Virus record (IMG/VR): IMGVR_UViG_2636416161_000013
Span: 1-7,963 of that record
Origin: a virus
Taxonomy: Duplodnaviria; Heunggongvirae; Uroviricota; Caudoviricetes
Length of the DNA stretch: 7,963 nucleotides
Reading direction: 5' to 3' (one strand)
The notes under the pieces are model-generated. The model saw only the letters and a program-made list of their open reading frames with translations, was not told where the DNA came from and did not search any database. Position 1 is the stretch's first letter; each line of letters begins with the position of its first letter. The translations under genes were made by a program, and so were the position numbers. Shown here one piece after another: positions 1-7,963 of this stretch.

Positions 1-680
1 GCCACAGGAACCGAACGGGATTTTCCGTTTTTGGTGTTAAAGAACGTCACCCGGTTGCCAACGATATGCTCTCCACGTAGTTCCGATGCTTCACTCCATC
101 GGGCACCAGTAGAAAGACACAGAATGGCAACACGACGCGCATCACCCTCCAGTCGCTCAAGAAGCCGTTCAATCTCATCATCAGAAAGAAAGGCCATCTC
201 TGTGTTCTGAACTTTCAGTTTTCGTATACCGCGTACAGGGTTCGCGTTGTGAAAGACCTCAGCTTCAATCAGCACCGTGAACATGGTAGACAGAACGCAC
301 AAGTCACGATTAATGCTGGATGGCATTAAGCCGGCCTGTAATTTCTCTGACCGATACTCAAGCATAAATTTTTGCGTCATCTGGCTGGCACGCGGATCTC
401 CCATTTCACGAATCACTTTCTCCATCCGGATCCTGTAGGTATCACCGTAAGCCTGGTTACGGCCATCAAGCATCCACCATATATCAAGCAGCTCTGATAA
501 TCTCCGTCGATCAGCAGGTTTAGCCAGCCATGGGTTGTTATGGAAATTCTGTAAAATATGTTCTTTGAAGGCCTCCGCACTCCCTTTCCTGACAAAAATT
601 TTACGTATCCGTTTGCCGTACGCCCCTTGGGGCCTGATATCGAGCAGCCATCGCCCATCATCCATCTTTCTGATCGACAT
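1..680 (-). CDS. Tyrosine recombinase / phage integrase, P2/186-like class; N-terminal 226 codons only, C-terminal catalytic end lies beyond the left window edge
   Basis: Minus-strand frame with ATG at 680-678 and no in-frame stop down to position 3; not in the supplied ORF track because it runs off the edge. Translation MSIRKMDDGRWLLDIRPQGAYGKRIRKIF...VAILCLSTGARWSEASELRGEHIVGNRVTFFNTKNGKSRSVPV shows an arm-binding-type N-terminus and the conserved LSTGARxSEA box carrying the first catalytic Arg of tyrosine recombinases. Strong SD AAGGAGG lies 10 nt upstream, inside the 3' end of the primase gene; primase stop TAA (685-683) is 2 nt from this ATG. Confidence 0.8.
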   Translation of the reverse strand, partial: MSIRKMDDGRWLLDIRPQGAYGKRIRKIFVRKGSAEAFKEHILQNFHNNPWLAKPADRRRLSELLDIWWMLDGRNQAYGDTYRIRMEKVIREMGDPRASQMTQKFMLEYRSEKLQAGLMPSSINRDLCVLSTMFTVLIEAEVFHNANPVRGIRKLKVQNTEMAFLSDDEIERLLERLEGDARRVAILCLSTGARWSEASELRGEHIVGNRVTFFNTKNGKSRSVPV

Positions 681-682
681 AC

Positions 683-3352
683 TTAAGCCCCCTCCTTGTT
701 ACTAAATATCCAGCATTTCAATACCTCCTTCTCTCTGGCCTCGGCTATTCCCCTCCCGGCGTTCGCCTGTCTGGATACCTCGCTACGGACGGGCTTGTAT
801 CCAATCAGCGATCGAGAACGGCCAGCCTTGAGAAGCTTTATCATTTCGGGATTGGTTTGGATCTTCACGTGGTGAACGGCGGCAACCTGCTCAAGTTGCG
901 GGATACTGACGGCAAACTCATTCTGCCGTCCCTTGCCAAAATGATTTACGCCGTATGCTGTGATGCCGTCCAGATAGTCGAACGCCTCCCAGAACGCCAT
1001 CACTTCCGGCAAGTCATCCATTACCGCTTTAGCCTGCTCCTCTGCCATTCGCTCCAGTTCCAGACATGTGGCATCAAGCCATTCATCCGGGATATCAATA
1101 ACGCATTTCAGCGCCCTGACCAGTGCAATTAGTTGCGCGTGATTTTTGGCAATACGCTGATGGCGAATATTCTCGCAACCGTAAAGGCGGGTTGTTTCAG
1201 AATCCGAGAGTGCCATAAACAGATCCATAATCGCCCGCTCCTGGCTTACTGCCCGATGGATAAAACCTGATACCTGCTCAACGGGGTAAAGCTCCAGCCG
1301 TTTTGCTGCCAGTCGGCTATCTGGTGAGTGGCGTTTTTTATCGGTGTATATACGTACCAGACGCTCGATAATTGCCGATGAGGCGTTTACCGTGGCATTC
1401 TGCGCAATCACGACAGCCCCTTTAAAAACGGGGTCATATGTGGCGTTATCATTAGTTTTAACACCACGTACCCCAATACCACCGCCGTTATAGAGGCTTT
1501 TCAGGTTATCAAAGTCAAACGCACCTCTTTTTTGCGCATTGTCCCCCCGGTCTGCTTCAATCAGAACAACAGGTAATCCGGCGACCTGTCCAAAAGTTCG
1601 CTTCCAGCCTGATTCCGATCCTTTGGTTGGATCAACACCTTCATAGTTGTCACGGCCACACAAACGCCAACAAAAATCAATCAGCGTTGTTTTACCCGTT
1701 CCAGGCTCTCCGGTAATCTCAAGAAAAGGGTAAGACGTGTTTTTCTGCCTGATTTGTTCGCTGAACAACGAACCCAGCCAGAAGGCCAGGGTAATAATTC
1801 CCTTTTCACCAAAAGCCAGCCAGAGATCTTCCACCCAGGATATTGTGAATTTATCCGGTTTTTTATAGTTAATCTGCAATATTGGTTTTTTATTCAATGG
1901 TTTTGCGTTTATGCCATCAATTTCAAAATAATCCTCTTCATTGATTTCGTAGGTTTTACCATTACAAACCGCGACATCATTAAACAGCCACGCGCCAATC
2001 TCTTTGTTGTATCCGATAAAATCCTGACCGATAACATTTTTTATTGCGGGAAGGTCATTTTTTATTAATGCATCAAGGTGCGCAGTCGTTCCGGTATAAA
2101 TACCGCCTTTTGCCACATGCAACAGGCGTTTTTTAAATTCAGATGCGGATGTTAATTGTCCTGATGTAAAGGTGTTTTTCACCGTCGCACCATCCGGGAA
2201 CGTAACACGGAAGTAATACCATGCTTCATCCGTGTCATTGTTTCGAATGTAATAAAGCGGCGCCGGGTTACAGTTTGCGATTTCTTTTACAGCGCCGGAT
2301 TCCTTAAGTGCAATTTTGCGCGCTTCATCTTCGTCAACATTTCGCTCATTTATGACGCGTTCAACAGCCTTCATATGGCGCTCAATATCCAGTTTGAACC
2401 AGAAAACACGGTTATCAAAAGTAAAATGAAATTCCTTTCGCTCACGAAAGGAAAACATTATCAGCGCCTTATCTCTCGGAGATTTTGCCAGCAATAAATC
2501 ACCGTAATAACGGTATCTTTTCACATCATGGCCACGCAGCTTTCCGGCGATGTGTAAATCATTCCAGTCGCGTTTATTACTGTTTTTTCCTGGTAACGCC
2601 GCTGCCGTTCTCCAGCCGTCTTCGGCGCTGCGTTCTGCATGTTTTTTCGCATAACGCTCACCCGCACGCCCGTTATCCAGCGCCCACACGATAACCGGAC
2701 GGGGATTATCCCCGCACAGCTTCGCCAGCTCTTCCAGCGCCTTATCAGGGTAGTTTACGGCAGACATGACAGAAACGGCCGCAATGCCATTCTGGTTAAG
2801 GCTGATGGCATCAAAGATACCCTCACAAATCCAGATTTCTTTGGCCTTGCTTAAATCATCTCCCGGATAAGCCCACCACAACCCCTTGTAGCTGCCGGAA
2901 AAATTCGCCTTGCGCGCGAAGCGTTCCGGTCGGTCTATGATGCGCTCCCACCACACGCCGTCAGCCAGTGTAAAACGCACAGTAGCGGCCTGTTCGCCGC
3001 TTTCCTTGTCCTGGTATCGCTCCTGAGTAAATGCTCCCTTCAGTGGCTCCACAGCAATATTGCGTGCTTCCAGAAGATAAGCTGTCGCCGCTGCGTATGG
3101 ATTGTCTTTCGTGCTGATATAGCGATCTGACCATGATGAAAACACATCCGGGTAAAGTTCTTTGGTCAACAGGTCTGTACCGCATTTATTTTCGCGCCCA
3201 CAGTGCACGATGTACGGCCTTTCAAGGCTGGTAAAGAGCTCCTTCTTTCCACATTGCGGACAAACACCATACCGGAGGTAGTTATTTTCTTCTTTGAAGT
3301 TGTAATCACGGATAAGACGGTTAATAATCTCTTTTCTGGTGTTATGTTTCAT
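683..3352 (-). CDS. P4 alpha-like bifunctional DNA primase / helicase (zinc ribbon, EGYATA/TOPRIM-like primase domain, P-loop NTPase)
   Basis: 889-aa ORF. CPQC...HCGRENKCG zinc-ribbon (about 3179-3262); ICEGIFDAISL primase motif resembling the EGYATA signature (about 2798-2830); Walker A GEPGTGKT verified on the nucleotides at 1688-1711; Walker B-like VVLIEAD (about 1550-1570). SD GGGGG about 8 nt upstream of the ATG at 3352. Confidence 0.9.
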   Translation of the reverse strand: MKHNTRKEIINRLIRDYNFKEENNYLRYGVCPQCGKKELFTSLERPYIVHCGRENKCGTDLLTKELYPDVFSSWSDRYISTKDNPYAAATAYLLEARNIAVEPLKGAFTQERYQDKESGEQAATVRFTLADGVWWERIIDRPERFARKANFSGSYKGLWWAYPGDDLSKAKEIWICEGIFDAISLNQNGIAAVSVMSAVNYPDKALEELAKLCGDNPRPVIVWALDNGRAGERYAKKHAERSAEDGWRTAAALPGKNSNKRDWNDLHIAGKLRGHDVKRYRYYGDLLLAKSPRDKALIMFSFRERKEFHFTFDNRVFWFKLDIERHMKAVERVINERNVDEDEARKIALKESGAVKEIANCNPAPLYYIRNNDTDEAWYYFRVTFPDGATVKNTFTSGQLTSASEFKKRLLHVAKGGIYTGTTAHLDALIKNDLPAIKNVIGQDFIGYNKEIGAWLFNDVAVCNGKTYEINEEDYFEIDGINAKPLNKKPILQINYKKPDKFTISWVEDLWLAFGEKGIITLAFWLGSLFSEQIRQKNTSYPFLEITGEPGTGKTTLIDFCWRLCGRDNYEGVDPTKGSESGWKRTFGQVAGLPVVLIEADRGDNAQKRGAFDFDNLKSLYNGGGIGVRGVKTNDNATYDPVFKGAVVIAQNATVNASSAIIERLVRIYTDKKRHSPDSRLAAKRLELYPVEQVSGFIHRAVSQERAIMDLFMALSDSETTRLYGCENIRHQRIAKNHAQLIALVRALKCVIDIPDEWLDATCLELERMAEEQAKAVMDDLPEVMAFWEAFDYLDGITAYGVNHFGKGRQNEFAVSIPQLEQVAAVHHVKIQTNPEMIKLLKAGRSRSLIGYKPVRSEVSRQANAGRGIAEAREKEVLKCWIFSNKEGA

Positions 3353-3364
3353 ATATAAATCCCC

Positions 3365-3393
3365 CCCACTGCACCTTTTGCAGTGGGTTTTTT
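3365..3393 (+). terminator. Hairpin (9-bp stem CCCACTGCA / TGCAGTGGG, 5-nt loop) followed by TTTTTT on the plus strand; intrinsic-terminator-like in the plus orientation
   Basis: Perfect inverted repeat 3365-3373 / 3379-3387, T-run 3388-3393. In the sense (minus) orientation it is preceded by an A-run and followed by GGGGAUUUAUAU, so it is not a canonical sense terminator; it abuts the primase SD. Confidence 0.5.
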
Positions 3394-3398
3394 ATTAA

Positions 3399-3698
3399 TT
3401 ACTCGTTGCTTATTGCTTTGGCAATCCCGGCGGTTTCGGCGCTATGCCATGAAAAAATTCCGCCGGATGAATGCATACCAGATTTTATTGATTGTAATTC
3501 CCTATAAATAATGTTAGACAGAGATGCAATTTCTTCATTTATAATTTCTGCTGATGCTCTGCCATTTTTATCGTCAAAAACCACAGATATTAAACTGACG
3601 AGATTAATCACATCTGTGAGATCTTCCTTTGCACTTTCTGTAAAAAAGCCAACATATTCTCTATCTAAAAAATTTTCGCTATTCTGACGTTTAGACAT
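3399..3698 (-). CDS. Hypothetical protein, 99 aa, moderately acidic, AT-rich gene
   Basis: ORF with ATG at 3698 and SD GGGGAG 5 nt upstream; stop TAA at 3401-3399. I counted about 15 Asp+Glu against 9 Lys+Arg. Visibly more AT-rich than flanking genes. No motif recognised. Confidence 0.6.
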   Translation of the reverse strand: MSKRQNSENFLDREYVGFFTESAKEDLTDVINLVSLISVVFDDKNGRASAEIINEEIASLSNIIYRELQSIKSGMHSSGGIFSWHSAETAGIAKAISNE

Positions 3699-3765
3699 AA
3701 AAACTCCCCGACCCGTTAAGGCCGAAATATAAATTTAATTCAGTTATCAGTTGGTAATTCGGGAA

Positions 3766-3996
3766 TCAGGCGGAAAGCTGCGTCACCTTCAACGCCCTGA
3801 AATGTGTCATTCCCAGCTCTTCCAGCCCTTCGGCTGCGCGGCGTATGGCTTCGCCCGGTCCCGTTCCGTATACCGTTGCATGTGCATGTGCATGTGCATG
3901 TTTGGTTAACCCACGTTTATTAACGGCATAACCCAACACAAAGAAACGTTTTTCACCACTGCCATTATTTTTACGGGATGTTGAACGGGTTTTCAT
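3766..3996 (-). CDS. Hypothetical protein, 76 aa, containing an internal (His-Ala)4 repeat
   Basis: ATG at 3996 overlaps the stop of the upstream ORF in an ATGA arrangement (translational coupling). Encodes KHAHAHAHAT from a hexanucleotide tandem repeat. No family recognised. Confidence 0.6.
   Translation of the reverse strand: MKTRSTSRKNNGSGEKRFFVLGYAVNKRGLTKHAHAHAHATVYGTGPGEAIRRAAEGLEELGMTHFRALKVTQLSA
3876..3899. repeat. Perfect hexanucleotide tandem repeat (GCATGT)x4 on plus = (CATGCA)x4 in sense, inside the 76-aa CDS
   Basis: Direct reading: gcatgt gcatgt gcatgt gcatgt at 3876-3899; in frame it encodes His-Ala x4. Confidence 0.9.
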
Positions 3997-4181
3997 TTCT
4001 TCACCTTTACCACTGATGCTGTGAGTTCTTCTTCTGGCAACTGATATTTCGGCGCAATTTCTTCCGTATACCTGATAGCGTCCCTTGCCGCTTTTCCTTT
4101 TGATTTATATTTATATGTGGTCCGGTAGTTTTCTTCCTCTCCTGTTACCACATTACGCAATTTAATATGAATCTCGTACAT
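3993..4181 (-). CDS. Hypothetical small protein, 62 aa (MYEIHIKLRN...)
   Basis: I prefer the internal ATG at 4181 over the track start at 4211: it has SD GGAGGGG 5 nt upstream and sits 2 nt after the stop of the preceding ORF, whereas 4211 has no usable SD and overlaps the upstream gene. Lys/Glu-rich; no motif recognised. Confidence 0.55.
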   Translation of the reverse strand: MYEIHIKLRNVVTGEEENYRTTYKYKSKGKAARDAIRYTEEIAPKYQLPEEELTASVVKVKK

Positions 4182-4183
4182 CG

Positions 4184-4366
4184 TTACCCCTCCATGATTT
4201 TTACTGCGCATTTGTGGGTTAATCGCCCCTGTTCATTCGTGCGGCTGTACTCCATGCGGCTGGCAGCACGCAGGGCATCATCACAGGTCTGATATTCCCT
4301 GACATGAAAAAACTGACGAACGTCGCCGCTCTGGCAGTTAATCAGGGTGATAAGGAGCTTAAACAT
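4184..4366 (-). CDS. Hypothetical small protein, 60 aa (MFKLLITLINCQSGD...)
   Basis: I prefer the ATG at 4366 (SD GGGAGG 6 nt upstream) over the track start at 4444, which is a GTG. It overlaps the stop of the upstream ORF as ATGTTTAA. No motif recognised. Confidence 0.55.
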   Translation of the reverse strand: MFKLLITLINCQSGDVRQFFHVREYQTCDDALRAASRMEYSRTNEQGRLTHKCAVKIMEG

Positions 4367-4886
4367 TGCACGCCTCCCGGATACGAATACGGGCAACAAA
4401 GACCAGACGGGATGCCGGAAGCAGGGCGCGCGCTTCGCGCTCACTGGCAGCGGTAACGGTATGAAGGCGAATATTTTTACCGTGGCACTGCATAAAGCGC
4501 CAGATAAAATCAGGGCGTGTTGATATAGCCATTTTGGCGGCTCCTTGATTAAGTTTACGGAGTCTCGCCAGCACGCTGCTAAACATGGTGGCGGGACGTA
4601 ACAGGGTTAGCAGACTGGCAATCAAGGAACCAGCGAGCGCAAAGGCTCCCCCATTACGCCCCGCCATAATACGGGGTAGGGTGGAATTACGGGCACAAAA
4701 AAACCGCATTACGGAAATATAGCGGCTACCCGCTTGATTGTTCAGGCTGCTAAACCCGGCACCCGCTTTATGAGGTGCGGGCAAACGATACGCCATGACA
4801 AAAAAGCGAGTCAAGCAATATTGCAAATTATTTTTGCTCACTTGCGCTGAGTGATTGATTTTAAAGAGTAAAAAAGCCATAATCAT
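4359..4886 (-). CDS. Hypothetical protein, 175 aa from the ATG at 4886, or about 145 aa if translation starts at the ATG at 4796 (MAYRLPAPHKAG...)
   Basis: Long minus-strand ORF whose stop overlaps the next gene start. The first 30 codons are AT-rich with only a weak SD (AGGCAGAA), so the true start is uncertain. No family recognised. Confidence 0.5.
   Translation of the reverse strand: MIMAFLLFKINHSAQVSKNNLQYCLTRFFVMAYRLPAPHKAGAGFSSLNNQAGSRYISVMRFFCARNSTLPRIMAGRNGGAFALAGSLIASLLTLLRPATMFSSVLARLRKLNQGAAKMAISTRPDFIWRFMQCHGKNIRLHTVTAASEREARALLPASRLVFVARIRIREACNV
4855..4883 (+). promoter_or_regulatory. Candidate sigma70-type promoter on the plus strand (TTGATT -17 bp- CATAAT), antisense to the small-ORF operon
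   Basis: -35-like TTGATT at 4855-4860 and -10-like CATAAT at 4878-4883 with a 17-bp spacer; a plus-strand hairpin/T-tract lies about 70-100 bp downstream. Motif match only, in an AT-rich region; weak evidence. Confidence 0.3.
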
Positions 4887-4948
4887 TTCTGCCTATTACT
4901 TCTTATTGCTGACTTTAGGTGCATTAAATGCACATCCTTGACTGGTTG

Positions 4949-4980
4949 GCTCGCTAGCTTCAGCGAGCTTCTTTTTTTTT
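4949..4980 (+). terminator. Rho-independent terminator-like hairpin on the plus strand (7-bp GC-rich stem GCTCGCT / AGCGAGC, 6-nt loop, then TTCTTTTTTTTT)
   Basis: Inverted repeat 4949-4955 / 4962-4968 followed by a T-tract at 4969-4980, nine of them consecutive. In the minus orientation the hairpin is preceded by an A-run and followed by non-U sequence, so it is oriented against the genes. Confidence 0.6.
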
Positions 4981-5080
4981 GCTCTGCTGCCAGTCCTTGG
5001 CCTCCTTCCCCCACATGTAGCAATACGTTCAGATCTGTAAGTTTTGCCACCCAGTGATGGACGCAATAAACCACCAACGC

Positions 5081-5401
5081 TTATTCAACTCTGGCGCTAC
5101 CGGATTCTCTCTCCCTTTTCTTTTTGGCGTTTTCGTATGGGTTATTCACTTTGGCAATAACTGGCGGATTACGTAGCCACCACAAAACATCACTTAACAG
5201 CCAGGTACATGAGCAACGCCCCAAAGAGTGACGAGGAGGAAAAGCACCGATCTTCTCCAGTTCCCAGCGGCGGGAGCGTGAAAGCGTGGTCATTTTTTTA
5301 CACTTCTCTTCCCTGATGCGTTCTTCGCAGTCAAAGCCATACTCGGCGAGTATGGTGCGGCGCTGTTCTGGAGTTGGTGGAATGAATGCGGATTGAGTCA
5401 T
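5081..5401 (-). CDS. alpA: AlpA-family (prophage CP4-57 regulatory / P4 Vis-like) helix-turn-helix transcriptional regulator, 106 aa with an N-terminal extension
   Basis: Translation contains MTTLSRSRRWELEKIGAFPPRHSLGRCSCTWLLSDVLWWL, matching the AlpA-type HTH pattern (SRST-like turn, G.FP, LG, W, Wl) as I recall it. ATG at 5401 with SD GGGGGA 4 nt upstream; an internal ATG at 5293 would give the about 70-aa core only. Confidence 0.8.
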   Translation of the reverse strand: MTQSAFIPPTPEQRRTILAEYGFDCEERIREEKCKKMTTLSRSRRWELEKIGAFPPRHSLGRCSCTWLLSDVLWWLRNPPVIAKVNNPYENAKKKRERESGSARVE

Positions 5402-5496
5402 ATTTCCCCCTATGTTTCTGAACTTTCGGGGGAGATTTTTGTTTTACGGAGTTTTGAAAGCAAGTATTAAAGGTCTTATTAAGATGCTTGCTGGTC

Positions 5497-6549
5497 TTAC
5501 TGAGATGATGCTTTAATCCATCTTGATATAGTACTTTTATCAAAGCGCATATTGAGTCCTGCCTCTCTTGCTTCCGCGGTCAATATATCAGCAAGTTTTA
5601 CCGGATTGTTTTCGAGTTCTTTATAATGAATAACAAGCATCGCACGAAAAAAATCCTTCATTGTTTTAGATAATCGTTCTATATTGTTTTTATTGGTGCA
5701 TATGTCTTTCTCTCCATCCTCAGAACTTAATATATTGTTACCCGCACACAAATATAAAGTATCTGCCAATGGATTAACATAATCTTTTCTTAACTCGCTA
5801 TTGGAGTTTGTAGCATTTTGTATTTTTAAAAAATCATTCTTTAAGATATATAAATCACCAATATCAAAAGAAACATCCTCAGTAACAATTAGTCCTATAT
5901 GTATATCAACGTCAGAAGCAATTATAATATTGCTATTAATTATTCGGTTGGCTTTAAACTTCTTATTAAAATCATAGTTGGCAAAAAAACTTCCCCCCAA
6001 AGCGAAAATGCCGCCTATTTCAACAAAATACTTATGGTATTTTTCTTGAATACCTTTAAATACTGGTGGCACAACTGCCACAGCTCTTTCATCCGTTGCT
6101 ATTCGATATACACTATATATGTGATAATTTTCCCCATAATATACCCCCCTGTTATAATAATTTAACAAAGCAAATGCAGTATCAATTGCTATGTCACCAA
6201 ATTTGGGCGCTACATATGAATGACTTAGAGATTCGCACATTGAATCAAATATAATTCTCGACTTGGTTTTTATATAATTAAAACCATGGTGTTCTGCCGC
6301 CCTTTCTGAAATGGCATCAAGATCAGATAACCGTGATTTACACGGTTCTGAATCCATAAACTTACGCAGACAATCGAAATTAACCACATCTTTTTCATCT
6401 GGGATATTTAATACTCCATATGCAGATTCAATTTTTATACAAATACGAATGCAGCCTGTCACAGCCCAATGAATAAGATCGTCAATATCGCAGTCTAATA
6501 ACTTTGCCGCGCGCTCAATAGGATAGTAATCTCTTAGTGGTAACGTCAT
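5497..6549 (-). CDS. Hypothetical protein, 350 aa, AT-rich gene immediately downstream of the integrase; function unknown
   Basis: ORF starts 16 bp after the integrase stop on the same strand with a weak SD. Asn/Ile/Tyr/Asp-rich product. N-terminal YYPIERAAKLLDCDIDDLIHWAVTG and C-terminal KSTISRWIK segments look HTH-like but match no motif I can name; no P-loop or other catalytic signature seen. Confidence 0.75.
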   Translation of the reverse strand: MTLPLRDYYPIERAAKLLDCDIDDLIHWAVTGCIRICIKIESAYGVLNIPDEKDVVNFDCLRKFMDSEPCKSRLSDLDAISERAAEHHGFNYIKTKSRIIFDSMCESLSHSYVAPKFGDIAIDTAFALLNYYNRGVYYGENYHIYSVYRIATDERAVAVVPPVFKGIQEKYHKYFVEIGGIFALGGSFFANYDFNKKFKANRIINSNIIIASDVDIHIGLIVTEDVSFDIGDLYILKNDFLKIQNATNSNSELRKDYVNPLADTLYLCAGNNILSSEDGEKDICTNKNNIERLSKTMKDFFRAMLVIHYKELENNPVKLADILTAEAREAGLNMRFDKSTISRWIKASSQ

Positions 6550-6565
6550 TCTTTTCGCTCACATA

Positions 6566-7768
6566 TTATTTATCTTTAACCATTTTTTCTAAACATTCAA
6601 GCCAGTCATTTAGAGCCTTTAATTTAAATGGGATATACTGGCTAAGATTATAGTTAAATTCTGCGGAGCCTGCATTATATACGTGACCTAATAATGACTC
6701 GACAATATGAGGCATTACCCCCATGTTGTTTAATCCAGTTGAAAATGTCCGTCTTAAATCGTGTAGTGTCCATTTTTCATTATGCCCGAATATTTTATAC
6801 ATTCTGCGACCTTTCAGAGAAACAGCTCTATGCGTTCTCTCCTCACCCAAAAGTAAGCCCGTCCTCCCGGTTTCCTGTTTTAGCTCTTTTAACCAGTCTC
6901 TTATGCCTTCGGGAATTGGCCGAATAATCTTTTTATTACTTTTACTGTTATTTCTTGGAACAATCCAAACCCATTCATTAAAATCCCACTCAATCCAATG
7001 AGAACGGCGAATCTCTACAGTTCTAGCCCCAAAGACAATAAGCAACTTTATTAATCTAGAAAAATAAATATCCCGATGTTTCTCCTTTGCAAAATACCAA
7101 AGATCTGATAGTTCGGCATCACTCAAAACACGGTCGCGCTGTCCGGCAGATTCCCCTACATCGGTTAACGTTAAATGAACCAGGGCATCACTGATGGCAT
7201 AACGCCGAACATTGCAAAACCGCAATGCCTGCTTGGAGAGCTGAAACATACGCCCCGCCGTTTTTGAACTTATAGCGCGAATCTCATCAAAACATTTTAC
7301 CCAATGGCGAGTATCGCACCGTGATAACGGATAATGGCCTATTCTGGGGTAGACATGTTTGCAGAATTGCGCCCTTATCAATTCCTCATCTTTGCGCTTA
7401 TGTCTTGCATAATTGACCAACCAATATTCCAACGCATCTCGAACAGTAACAGGAGCACGGGATTCTTCAGTAAAAAGTTGGAGTTCAATTTTTGGATCAA
7501 GACCATTAGCCAACCATTGACGGCAACGCTCACGCCACATCCTGGCATCTTTCAGACTAATATCAGGGTAATTCCCTAGAGTAAGACGAATAACTGAACT
7601 CTCACGCCCTCCAAGGCGATATGAAAAAACCCAGCTCACATGCCCTTTAGTTGATAACCTGACCCCTAACCCCTCTCCGTCAGCAAGCATTTCAACACGA
7701 TCCCTATGCGTTCCTTGCAGCGCCTTTAGTTTCCTGTCGCTGAGCTTATTCGTTCCAGACATCATCAC
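6566..7768 (-). CDS. int: Site-specific tyrosine integrase, P4 / CP4-57 family (tRNA-island type)
   Basis: 400-aa ORF. N-terminal arm-binding-like region LSDRKLKAL...GLGVRLSTKGHVSWVFSYRLGG...LGNYP.ISLKDAR and C-terminal catalytic region HDLRRTFST...LLGHVYN...Y. The track start at 7768 is a GTG; the first ATGs are at 7765 and 7762. Confidence 0.9.
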   Translation of the reverse strand: MMMSGTNKLSDRKLKALQGTHRDRVEMLADGEGLGVRLSTKGHVSWVFSYRLGGRESSVIRLTLGNYPDISLKDARMWRERCRQWLANGLDPKIELQLFTEESRAPVTVRDALEYWLVNYARHKRKDEELIRAQFCKHVYPRIGHYPLSRCDTRHWVKCFDEIRAISSKTAGRMFQLSKQALRFCNVRRYAISDALVHLTLTDVGESAGQRDRVLSDAELSDLWYFAKEKHRDIYFSRLIKLLIVFGARTVEIRRSHWIEWDFNEWVWIVPRNNSKSNKKIIRPIPEGIRDWLKELKQETGRTGLLLGEERTHRAVSLKGRRMYKIFGHNEKWTLHDLRRTFSTGLNNMGVMPHIVESLLGHVYNAGSAEFNYNLSQYIPFKLKALNDWLECLEKMVKDK

Positions 7769-7777
7769 CGTTCCGAT

Positions 7778-7800
7778 ATTGATACACGCATTGATACACG
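7778..7800. repeat. Two tandem direct copies of ATTGATACACG (7778-7788 and 7790-7800, 12-bp period) 10-30 bp upstream of the integrase start
   Basis: Read directly from the sequence; the position in the int 5' region suggests a protein-binding (operator or arm-type) site. Confidence 0.7.
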
Positions 7801-7810
7801 TGAAATATTA

Positions 7811-7889
7811 ATATCCAGAAAAAATGAAATCGAGCATGAACACAAAATCACTACAACATAATGATTTTGATTGATTTTTTATATCCAGA
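7811..7889. repeat. Direct repeat ATATCCAGA at 7811-7819 and 7881-7889 in the AT-rich region upstream of int
   Basis: Two exact 9-bp copies 70 bp apart; a 10-bp AT palindrome ATATTAATAT (7805-7814) overlaps the first copy. Confidence 0.5.
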
Positions 7890-7963
7890 GGGTAAACACC
7901 AGAAAAGTCAGGAACATAAAAAACATTACTTCTACAGTATGTTTCATATCTCTAACCATATGA

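Follow-up and report, generated by a model that had tools for sequence, protein, structure and literature searches.

A P2-type second integrase in the primase operon of a P4-like satellite, and its sequence exchange with the integrases of P2-like phages

Phage satellites are thought to carry one integrase, which serves their own insertion, and detection pipelines discard any extras. The post-processing of SatelliteFinder presumes one integrase per satellite (PMC10085698), and a survey of P4-like elements ascribed the rare cases of an "integrase next to alpha" to neighboring elements (PMC8628076). A different arrangement is evident in a stretch of 7,963 nucleotides (nt) of tailed-phage DNA (IMG/VR record IMGVR_UViG_2636416161_000013, positions 1 to 7,963; hereafter "the window"), where the gene for a toprim primase-helicase is followed by a second integrase gene, here called int2, of the type used by the helper phages of such satellites. 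The comparisons reported below show Int2 to be an intact, selected, phage-type integrase that exchanges sequence with the integrases of the helper family.

Several described systems resemble parts of this arrangement. With satellite P4, the element carrying int2 shares a P4-type integrase, AlpA, a C4/CI RNA, a primase operon with iterons, Ogr/Delta and a P2-type cos, as well as dependence on P2-like helpers; it differs in that P4 has one integrase whereas the primase operon here closes with a second integrase of helper type, in that its toprim primase lacks a match to the D5-type alpha protein, and in the presence of a P2-family capsid homolog. The P2 integrase (solved structure 5c6k) and the integrases of P2-like prophages share the fold of Int2 and have N-terminal arm-binding, Int_N core-binding and catalytic domains in the same order, but unlike its counterpart in a P2-like prophage, int2 has neither a C repressor/cox switch beside it nor an attP after it. 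Compared with the integrase of a P2-like phage that inserts at serS, it has a satellite-specific tail, a different sequence over the first 42 amino acids (aa), and a predicted expression from the primase operon. The tyrosine recombinases of Cre/loxP, XerCD/dif and F ResD are also encoded beside replication functions; these, however, work on a fixed site close by and have no domain for arm binding, and Int2 matches Xer proteins with E values of only 1e-8 to 1e-12, as opposed to 1e-95 for P2 Int. The integrase of the Vibrio PLE uses the ICP1 protein PexA as a directionality factor, so that there, too, satellite and helper interact by way of site-specific recombination. The logic would be reversed, however: in our case the satellite carries the helper's type of integrase, instead of receiving a cofactor for its own integrase from the helper. 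A description of a satellite-borne, helper-type orphan integrase was not found in the literature searched, and while Int2 as a protein is unremarkable within its well-known family, its context appears to be undescribed.

The 5′ part of int2 occupies positions 1-680 of the window (minus strand), where 226 codons of a P2-family tyrosine integrase run without a stop as far as position 1, beyond which the gene continues. The gene for the toprim primase-helicase (683-3352, minus strand; 889 aa) lies upstream of it in one transcription unit. At the coupling junction (678-697, minus strand), which on the minus strand reads ...aacAAGGAGGgggctTAAgtATGtcgatc..., only the two bases gt stand between the primase stop codon TAA (685-683) and the int2 start codon ATG (680-678), and the Shine-Dalgarno sequence AAGGAGG (697-691) is situated within the 3′ end of the primase gene. 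An earlier note on this DNA had described a recombinase frame starting 2 nt past the primase stop with its Shine-Dalgarno sequence embedded in the primase gene, and the coordinates were verified. The note's assignment of both genes to one operon is likewise borne out by the 2-nt gap, the embedded Shine-Dalgarno sequence and a search for a promoter-like site between primase and int2, which returned none; a gap of this size also leaves no room for an att site, as had been remarked. The full gene was read in L008, an E. coli assembly and one of many public contigs on which the exact primase protein was found; it is identical to the window over all 7,963 nt but for nine mismatches. In L008, int2 is a complete open reading frame (ORF) of 333 aa with no internal stops, and a strong intrinsic terminator follows 23 nt after its stop codon (free energy -23.7 kcal/mol, z -5.1). 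Given the terminator after the gene and the lack of a promoter before it, int2 is, as far as such signals can be predicted, the final gene of the primase transcription unit, and not the truncated or disrupted pseudogene that the earlier note had considered.

Pfam comparisons of the window part of Int2 gave the Int_N domain (PF24624, E=7e-29) and the beginning of the Phage_integrase domain (PF00589). Int2 matches the solved P2 integrase structure 5c6k with E=4.6e-95 and HP1 Int (1aih) with E=7.5e-46, and shares 51% identity with P2 Int. The catalytic residues R194, K217, H268, R271, H294 and Y303 are fully conserved in an alignment of five integrases and also align with P2 Int (5c6k); the window reaches residue 226 only and thus holds R194 and K217, the later residues, including the C-terminal HxxR...Y signature (H268, R271, Y303), having been recovered through L008. 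Int2 thus has the PF00589 catalytic residues of the tyrosine recombinase superfamily (R...K...HxxR...H/W...Y), and its Int_N domain and overall homology to P2 Int make it a heterobivalent integrase of the P2/186/HP1 type. The integrase encoded at 6566-7768 is of another class (Pfam Arm-DNA-bind_3 plus Phage_integrase, the P4/CP4-57 type), so that the distinction drawn in the earlier note holds. In the arm-binding domain of P2-type integrases, the residues Y, D and R have been proposed at three discriminator positions for arm specificity (PMC3448106); the serS phage integrase has Y, D and R at these positions, and the allele in the window has W, D and R (W11).

Four int2 alleles were evident in E. 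coli, with a mutual protein identity of 51-58%. When collinear satellites (92-96% identity) were compared over the whole element, the only non-homologous stretch was a segment of ~720-780 bp inside int2, and these alignments show int2 to be the sole hypervariable locus of the element. Conserved across the alleles are the first 25-50 nt and last ~100 nt of the gene, as well as the downstream 250 bp and the iterons found there. The allele of the window and of L001 has its counterpart in a P2-like prophage between serS and dmsA and in phage vB_EcoM-569R5 (~90.5% nt identity; 94% aa identity over residues 43-309); this prophage occurs in ~290 genomes, UTI89 included, and the phage matching the window allele inserts at the serS terminator. 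The L005 allele corresponds to P2-like prophages adjoining ppa (87% nt, 86-89% aa) and resembles its phage counterpart across the N-terminal domain too, the L004 allele corresponds to the integrases of Xuanwuvirus (Peduoviridae; 81% aa), and for the L003 allele there is no close counterpart (best match 57% aa). For three of the four E. coli alleles, protein identity to integrases of P2-like phages thus amounts to 81-89%. Through the phage-related central segment, the core-binding and catalytic domains of Int2 match those of particular P2-like phages. Ratios of nonsynonymous to synonymous divergence (dN/dS) between satellite and phage copies were 0.066 and 0.089, at dS of 0.42 and 0.67, and on this measure the selection on int2 is purifying.

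Exchange with a phage gene can be seen within the window itself. The nine mismatches to L008 all fall between positions 62 and 245, with none in the remaining ~7,780 nt, and they are the sole differences in 7,963 nt; at nine of nine the window has the phage base. Positions 1-293 (minus strand; int2 nt 388-680) are 100% identical to the integrase of the UTI89 serS/dmsA prophage, a conversion tract of at least 293 bp that reaches the window edge, and the longest exact match to the phage gene accordingly measures 293 nt in the window versus 101 nt in L008. Such clustering is the signature of a recent gene-conversion patch with a P2-like phage as the probable donor, and it follows that the satellite shares cells with such phages and recombines with them. 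With nine clustered changes in 7,963 nt, it represents an unusually clean natural case of gene conversion between satellite and helper.

Judged by its gene content, the host element is a P4-like satellite of P2-like phages, albeit a non-canonical one. It measures ~13 kb and starts with the P4-type integrase, a 350-aa ORF, AlpA and an Icd-like region with C4-type and isrK-like RNAs; small ORFs, the primase, int2, the terminator and a palindrome of GGTTACA iterons make up the middle, and a putative cos, an Ogr/Delta gene, a 236-aa protein, a P2-family major-capsid homolog and MazEF the far part. The P4-type integrase, AlpA, C4/CI immunity RNA, Delta/Ogr and P2-type cos are as expected of P4-like satellites. 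The primase matches Toprim families (Pfam) and phrog_1139 only, with no match to the alpha primases of D5/PF03288 type; the Psu family was not found among the genes of the loci, and Sid was not seen either, though no dedicated profile search was made for it. The C4-type antisense RNA (P4 CI-like immunity; 4584-4671, minus strand; 74.7 bits) and the isrK-like RNA (4697-4778, minus strand; 52.1 bits), both above the Rfam gathering score, lie within an ORF elsewhere annotated as Icd-like, upstream of the primase and in the same orientation. Their presence would imply a P4-style control of the operon that ends in int2. A non-coding stretch of ~165 bp (L001:10727-10896) is ~82% identical to unannotated, portal-adjacent DNA of P2-like prophages in ~800 E. 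coli genomes and is read here as a P2-type cos; the match points to P2-like phages as the helpers.

About 260 bp downstream of int2 (L008:13931-14232, equivalent to L001:11119-11420), a perfect 31-nt inverted repeat bounds 240 bp densely filled with inverted arrays of GGTTACA/TGTAACC iterons. The ori/crr of P4 offers an analog for an iteron region after the primase, and this palindrome is probably an origin bound by the toprim primase. The primase itself is ~50% identical to the replicases of a subset of true P2-like phages, in Providencia (L019) and Salmonella (L020), which are complete P2-like prophages with the order int-C / cox...primase / ogr, portal, terminase. As the primase homologs are replication genes of P2-like prophages, descent from P2-like phages seems likely for several modules of the satellite family, namely primase, int2, capsid, ogr and cos.

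The insertion of the element is accounted for by the P4-type integrase (6566-7768, minus strand). Next to its gene lies the direct repeat GTGTATCAAT-N2-GTGTATCAAT (7778-7799, minus strand), which recurs at the opposite end of the element and probably represents the arm sites of this integrase, followed by a 24-nt attL core, ATGAAACATACTGTAGAAGTAATG (7924-7947, minus strand), of which a second copy, matching in 22 of 24 bases, stands where hpt begins, at the element's other end. In L008 the element is positioned between gcd and hpt, the far-end counterparts of the att repeats are found at 18273-18296 and 18358-18381, and GTGTATCAAT repeats lie inside both ends; since this core extends over the opening codons of hpt, the start of that gene is provided or duplicated by the element. 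The body from Icd to MazEF, with no difference in primase or int2, is likewise found at argW, a tRNA-Arg gene, together with another P4-type integrase module (L012, L001). Comparing L008-L011 and L013 with L012 and L001, one satellite body is thus combined with two P4-type integrase modules at the sites gcd|hpt and argW, a pattern from which we conclude that the primary integrase is undergoing modular exchange. That an identical primase-int2 pair is seen at two sites with different P4-type modules indicates that the site follows the P4-type integrase, not int2.

The att core of the serS phage is AAAGCGCCTGCGGGCGCTTT, and its arm-type repeats (GTGTCCAT-like), which fit the P2-type arm consensus tgTGGaCa (PMC3448106), lie within the final codons of the int gene of this phage and beside hok. 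Where the phage gene has this arm-bearing 3′ end, int2 of the satellite has another tail. Searches of the satellite elements for the serS core (up to 3 mismatches), the arms and the ppa-phage junction returned chance matches of at most 13 nt only, and there are no P2-type or 186-type arm pairs (tgTGGaCa or tgccGCCActt) in the window or in L008; a cognate attP was thus not recognizable beside the 3′ end of int2. A pair fitting the P2-type arm consensus, cGTGGACAatatGTGGACA, is present in three satellites with three int2 alleles (L001:18181-18199, L003:16084-16102, L025:11620-11638) as a direct repeat ~50 bp downstream of the argW-type P4-family integrase gene; it goes with this integrase module irrespective of the int2 allele and is not found in the window-type element. 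The GGTTACA iterons were also considered as arm sites of Int2 and rejected, being conserved across the alleles and present in a Salmonella satellite that has no int2, which indicates that they belong to the primase.

The primase is found in ~64 of 5,426 complete E. coli genomes, and an integrase of ~333 aa follows it in all 60 of the 60 top-ranked matches, with either the 2-nt gap or an ATGA overlap. For more distant contexts, a homologous-protein search with the primase was followed by inspection of the contigs encoding the homologs. The pair is also present in an Escherichia sp. element, in Yersinia enterocolitica (primase identity 77%), in a metagenomic element (59%) and in an Enterobacter element, L022 (55%; spacer ~490 nt). 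The tight junction (2-nt gap or ATGA overlap) is seen in the Escherichia and Yersinia elements examined, and the gap is 15 nt in L021. With this recurrence across elements, the juxtaposition of primase and int2 is not due to chance. The Salmonella satellite just mentioned, whose primase is 61% identical, is without int2 although the iteron palindrome still follows its primase, so that co-occurrence of the two genes in related elements, which the earlier note had asked about, holds for Escherichia, Yersinia and Enterobacter but not for this one Salmonella element. In the Enterobacter sp. contig, a 45-bp direct repeat comprising the 3′ part of a tRNA-Met gene (L022:990-1034 and 14136-14211) flanks the satellite, which adjoins the gpD-ogr end of a P2-like prophage, placing helper and satellite in tandem at tRNA-Met.

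Co-occurrence of satellites with the matching prophages was counted with int2-only and phage-specific queries, as second places of the primase could be second satellites; two satellites with different int2 alleles are indeed seen in some genomes, such as NZ_CP122685.1 (ETEC4067), NZ_CP122823.1 (ETEC1732) and others. Among the genomes with an L005-allele satellite, four of seven also contain a genuine Cox-C-Int region of a ppa-site P2-like prophage, compared with 31 of 5,419 other genomes (0.6%) and roughly 3 of 57 genomes whose satellites have a different allele. Fisher tests gave p=5e-8 against the other genomes (4e-6 with a clonal pair removed) and p=0.002 against satellites of other alleles. 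The resident prophage integrase of PEC240 is only 75% identical to the Int2 of its satellite, an identity that suggests a match at the level of att-site groups and not a trivial recent copy. For the allele family of the window, a serS-type integrase shares the genome with ~8 of 22 satellites versus a background of 5%, the second loci having been inspected in part.

We tentatively favor the scenario in which Int2 is an orphan, helper-matched integrase that acts in trans on the att sites of the helper, most likely promoting the excision of helper prophages. According to this scenario, a P2-family integrase became detached from any attachment site of its own and took up the final position in the primase operon of a satellite that depends on P2. 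For want of a cognate attP in the satellite, Int2 would be left with the att sites of P2-like (pro)phages and their bacterial attB as its sole substrates. The position of int2 downstream of a C4/CI-type immunity RNA would tie its expression to activation of the satellite, with Int2 produced only after the satellite's immunity has been relieved and transcription runs through the primase operon. Acting with the Cox protein of the helper, Int2 would then most likely excise the helper prophage, which would raise the supply of helper late-gene products or permit co-release of the helper. P2 prophages excise poorly on derepression, Int being limiting. An extension of this scenario, possible but held with less confidence, is that Int2 is a swappable cassette for helper specificity, with allele exchange with phage integrases retuning the satellite to new helpers; a satellite under its own immunity control would in this way excise or command a helper prophage that is poor at its own excision.

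Several observations weigh against action on helper att sites and call for caution. Classical P4 is not known to need excision of its helper. Over its first 42 aa, which form the arm-binding domain, the window allele shares only 55% identity with the integrase of the serS phage, and one of the three proposed arm-discriminator positions has W, not Y; with this diverged N-terminus, binding of Int2 to helper arm sites is not assured. The L003 allele is without a close phage counterpart, and the Salmonella satellite shows that the gene is not essential to the satellite lifestyle. Moreover, the co-occurrence counts are small, partly clonal and partly derived from cross-referenced match lists, and both the co-occurrence and the similarity of alleles could follow from shared cells and recombination alone. 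The effect on the helper might also run in another direction than promoted excision, with integration being blocked or forced instead.

Among the alternatives, we ranked excision in trans above an anti-helper role, a neutral passenger and a role in cis, in this order. In an anti-helper role, Int2 would keep the prophage in, force an incoming helper to integrate or poison the integrase complexes of the helper, and the helper capsids would then be filled with satellite DNA. The lack of an own att site, the phage-matched core-binding and catalytic domains and the co-occurrence would suit such interference equally well, this evidence being common to both readings, and a protein with a satellite-specific N-terminal 42 aa and C-terminal tail could bind the core without forming productive arm-bridged complexes. 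A mere blocker would not, however, need all of the catalytic residues and strong purifying selection enzyme-wide, and the L005 allele is like its phage counterpart over the N-terminal domain as well, leaving interference an unlikely explanation. Rather unlikely, too, is that int2 is a captured phage gene with no role in the satellite, retained through its place in the primase operon and time and again repaired or overwritten by recombination with the integrases of co-resident prophages. The fresh conversion tract in the window, the mosaic structure, the absence of int2 from the related Salmonella satellite and the lack of a target site are what such a passenger would leave; yet the ORF is intact in every inspected element, over 55-100% primase identity and at least seven alleles, dN/dS is 0.07-0.09 at dS of 0.4-0.7, the L003 and L004 alleles are intact though they have no near-identical donor in the 5,426 E. 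coli genomes, and tight translational coupling is kept in the Escherichia and Yersinia elements. A useless gene of 1 kb in a size-constrained, packaged element of ~13 kb would moreover be expected to decay or disappear.

The location of int2 in a replication operon adjoining a putative origin, together with the ability of P4-type elements to replicate as plasmids (PMC8628076), would fit a recombinase that serves the satellite in cis, either for multimer resolution of the replicon (Cre/Xer/ResD-like) or as a second integration system, both of which the earlier note had proposed. Resolution is hard to reconcile with alleles of 51-58% identity in collinear backbones of 92-96%, where no site or other segment co-varies with the allele and the flanking 250 bp and iterons are conserved regardless, the iterons even without int2 in Salmonella; the protein, too, has the architecture and best matches of a heterobivalent P2-type integrase and not of the Xer/Cre type. 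Against a second integration function stand the lack of P2- or 186-type arm pairs, of a phage core and hence of a corresponding attP in the element, and an insertion site that follows the P4-type module, for which core and arms were identified. We consider a cis role improbable as a whole. Far less probable still is an invertase acting on the 240-bp segment between the 31-bp perfect inverted repeats as a promoter or origin switch. While such a repeat 250 bp downstream of a tyrosine recombinase gene recalls Fim-type switches, the segment had the same orientation in 11 of 11 elements, diverged ones included, and the repeat belongs to the GGTTACA-iteron palindrome, which is conserved across int2 alleles and also follows the primase in the relative without int2; the invertible switch was rejected on these grounds, and with it the inversion recombinase of the earlier note. 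The explanation given for rare integrase-next-to-alpha cases in the P4-like survey (PMC8628076), that the gene is part of a neighboring prophage or marks a junction of two tandem elements, is hardly credible here: int2 sits mid-element, with the origin, cos, Ogr/Delta, capsid homolog and MazEF coming after it, the att repeats of the P4-type integrase bracket ~13 kb, and the 2-nt junction is conserved in Escherichia and Yersinia. A junction with a second tandem element, as the earlier note had envisaged, is thereby refuted, and so is a separate prophage across an att site, as satellite genes continue beyond int2. What stands of that interpretation are the recombinase class, the operon, the missing space for an att site and the co-occurrence with the primase, whereas its functional suggestions are mostly unsupported.

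Other parts of the element deserve mention in their own right. The capsid homolog (L008:15478-17459) has 423 aa, of which residues 119-422 make up the match, leaving an N-terminal extension of ~118 aa, and the 236-aa protein encoded ahead of it has no family match; the satellite may build its own capsid. Between the P4-type integrase and AlpA, an ORF of 350 aa (5497-6549, minus strand) without a Pfam or PHROG match has a G+C fraction of ~0.30-0.35 compared with ~0.5 elsewhere and is confined to the version of the element inserted at hpt, making it a candidate for accessory or defense cargo. A small ORF contains a perfect hexamer tandem repeat, (TGCATG) x 4.2, at positions 3877-3901 of the window, which encodes a HAHAHAHA stretch and may be prone to slippage.

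Against the expectation of one integrase per satellite, the helper-type second integrase described here is a conserved member of the primase operon, is under purifying selection, has no recognizable att site of its own, and is exchanged with the genes of helper phages. If Int2 does act on helper att sites, satellites would control the excision or integration of their helper prophages, the step that limits P2-type induction, and the int2 allele would determine which helpers a satellite can exploit. If it also serves as a swappable cassette, it would add a new layer to the piracy between satellites and helpers, mediated by site-specific recombination.

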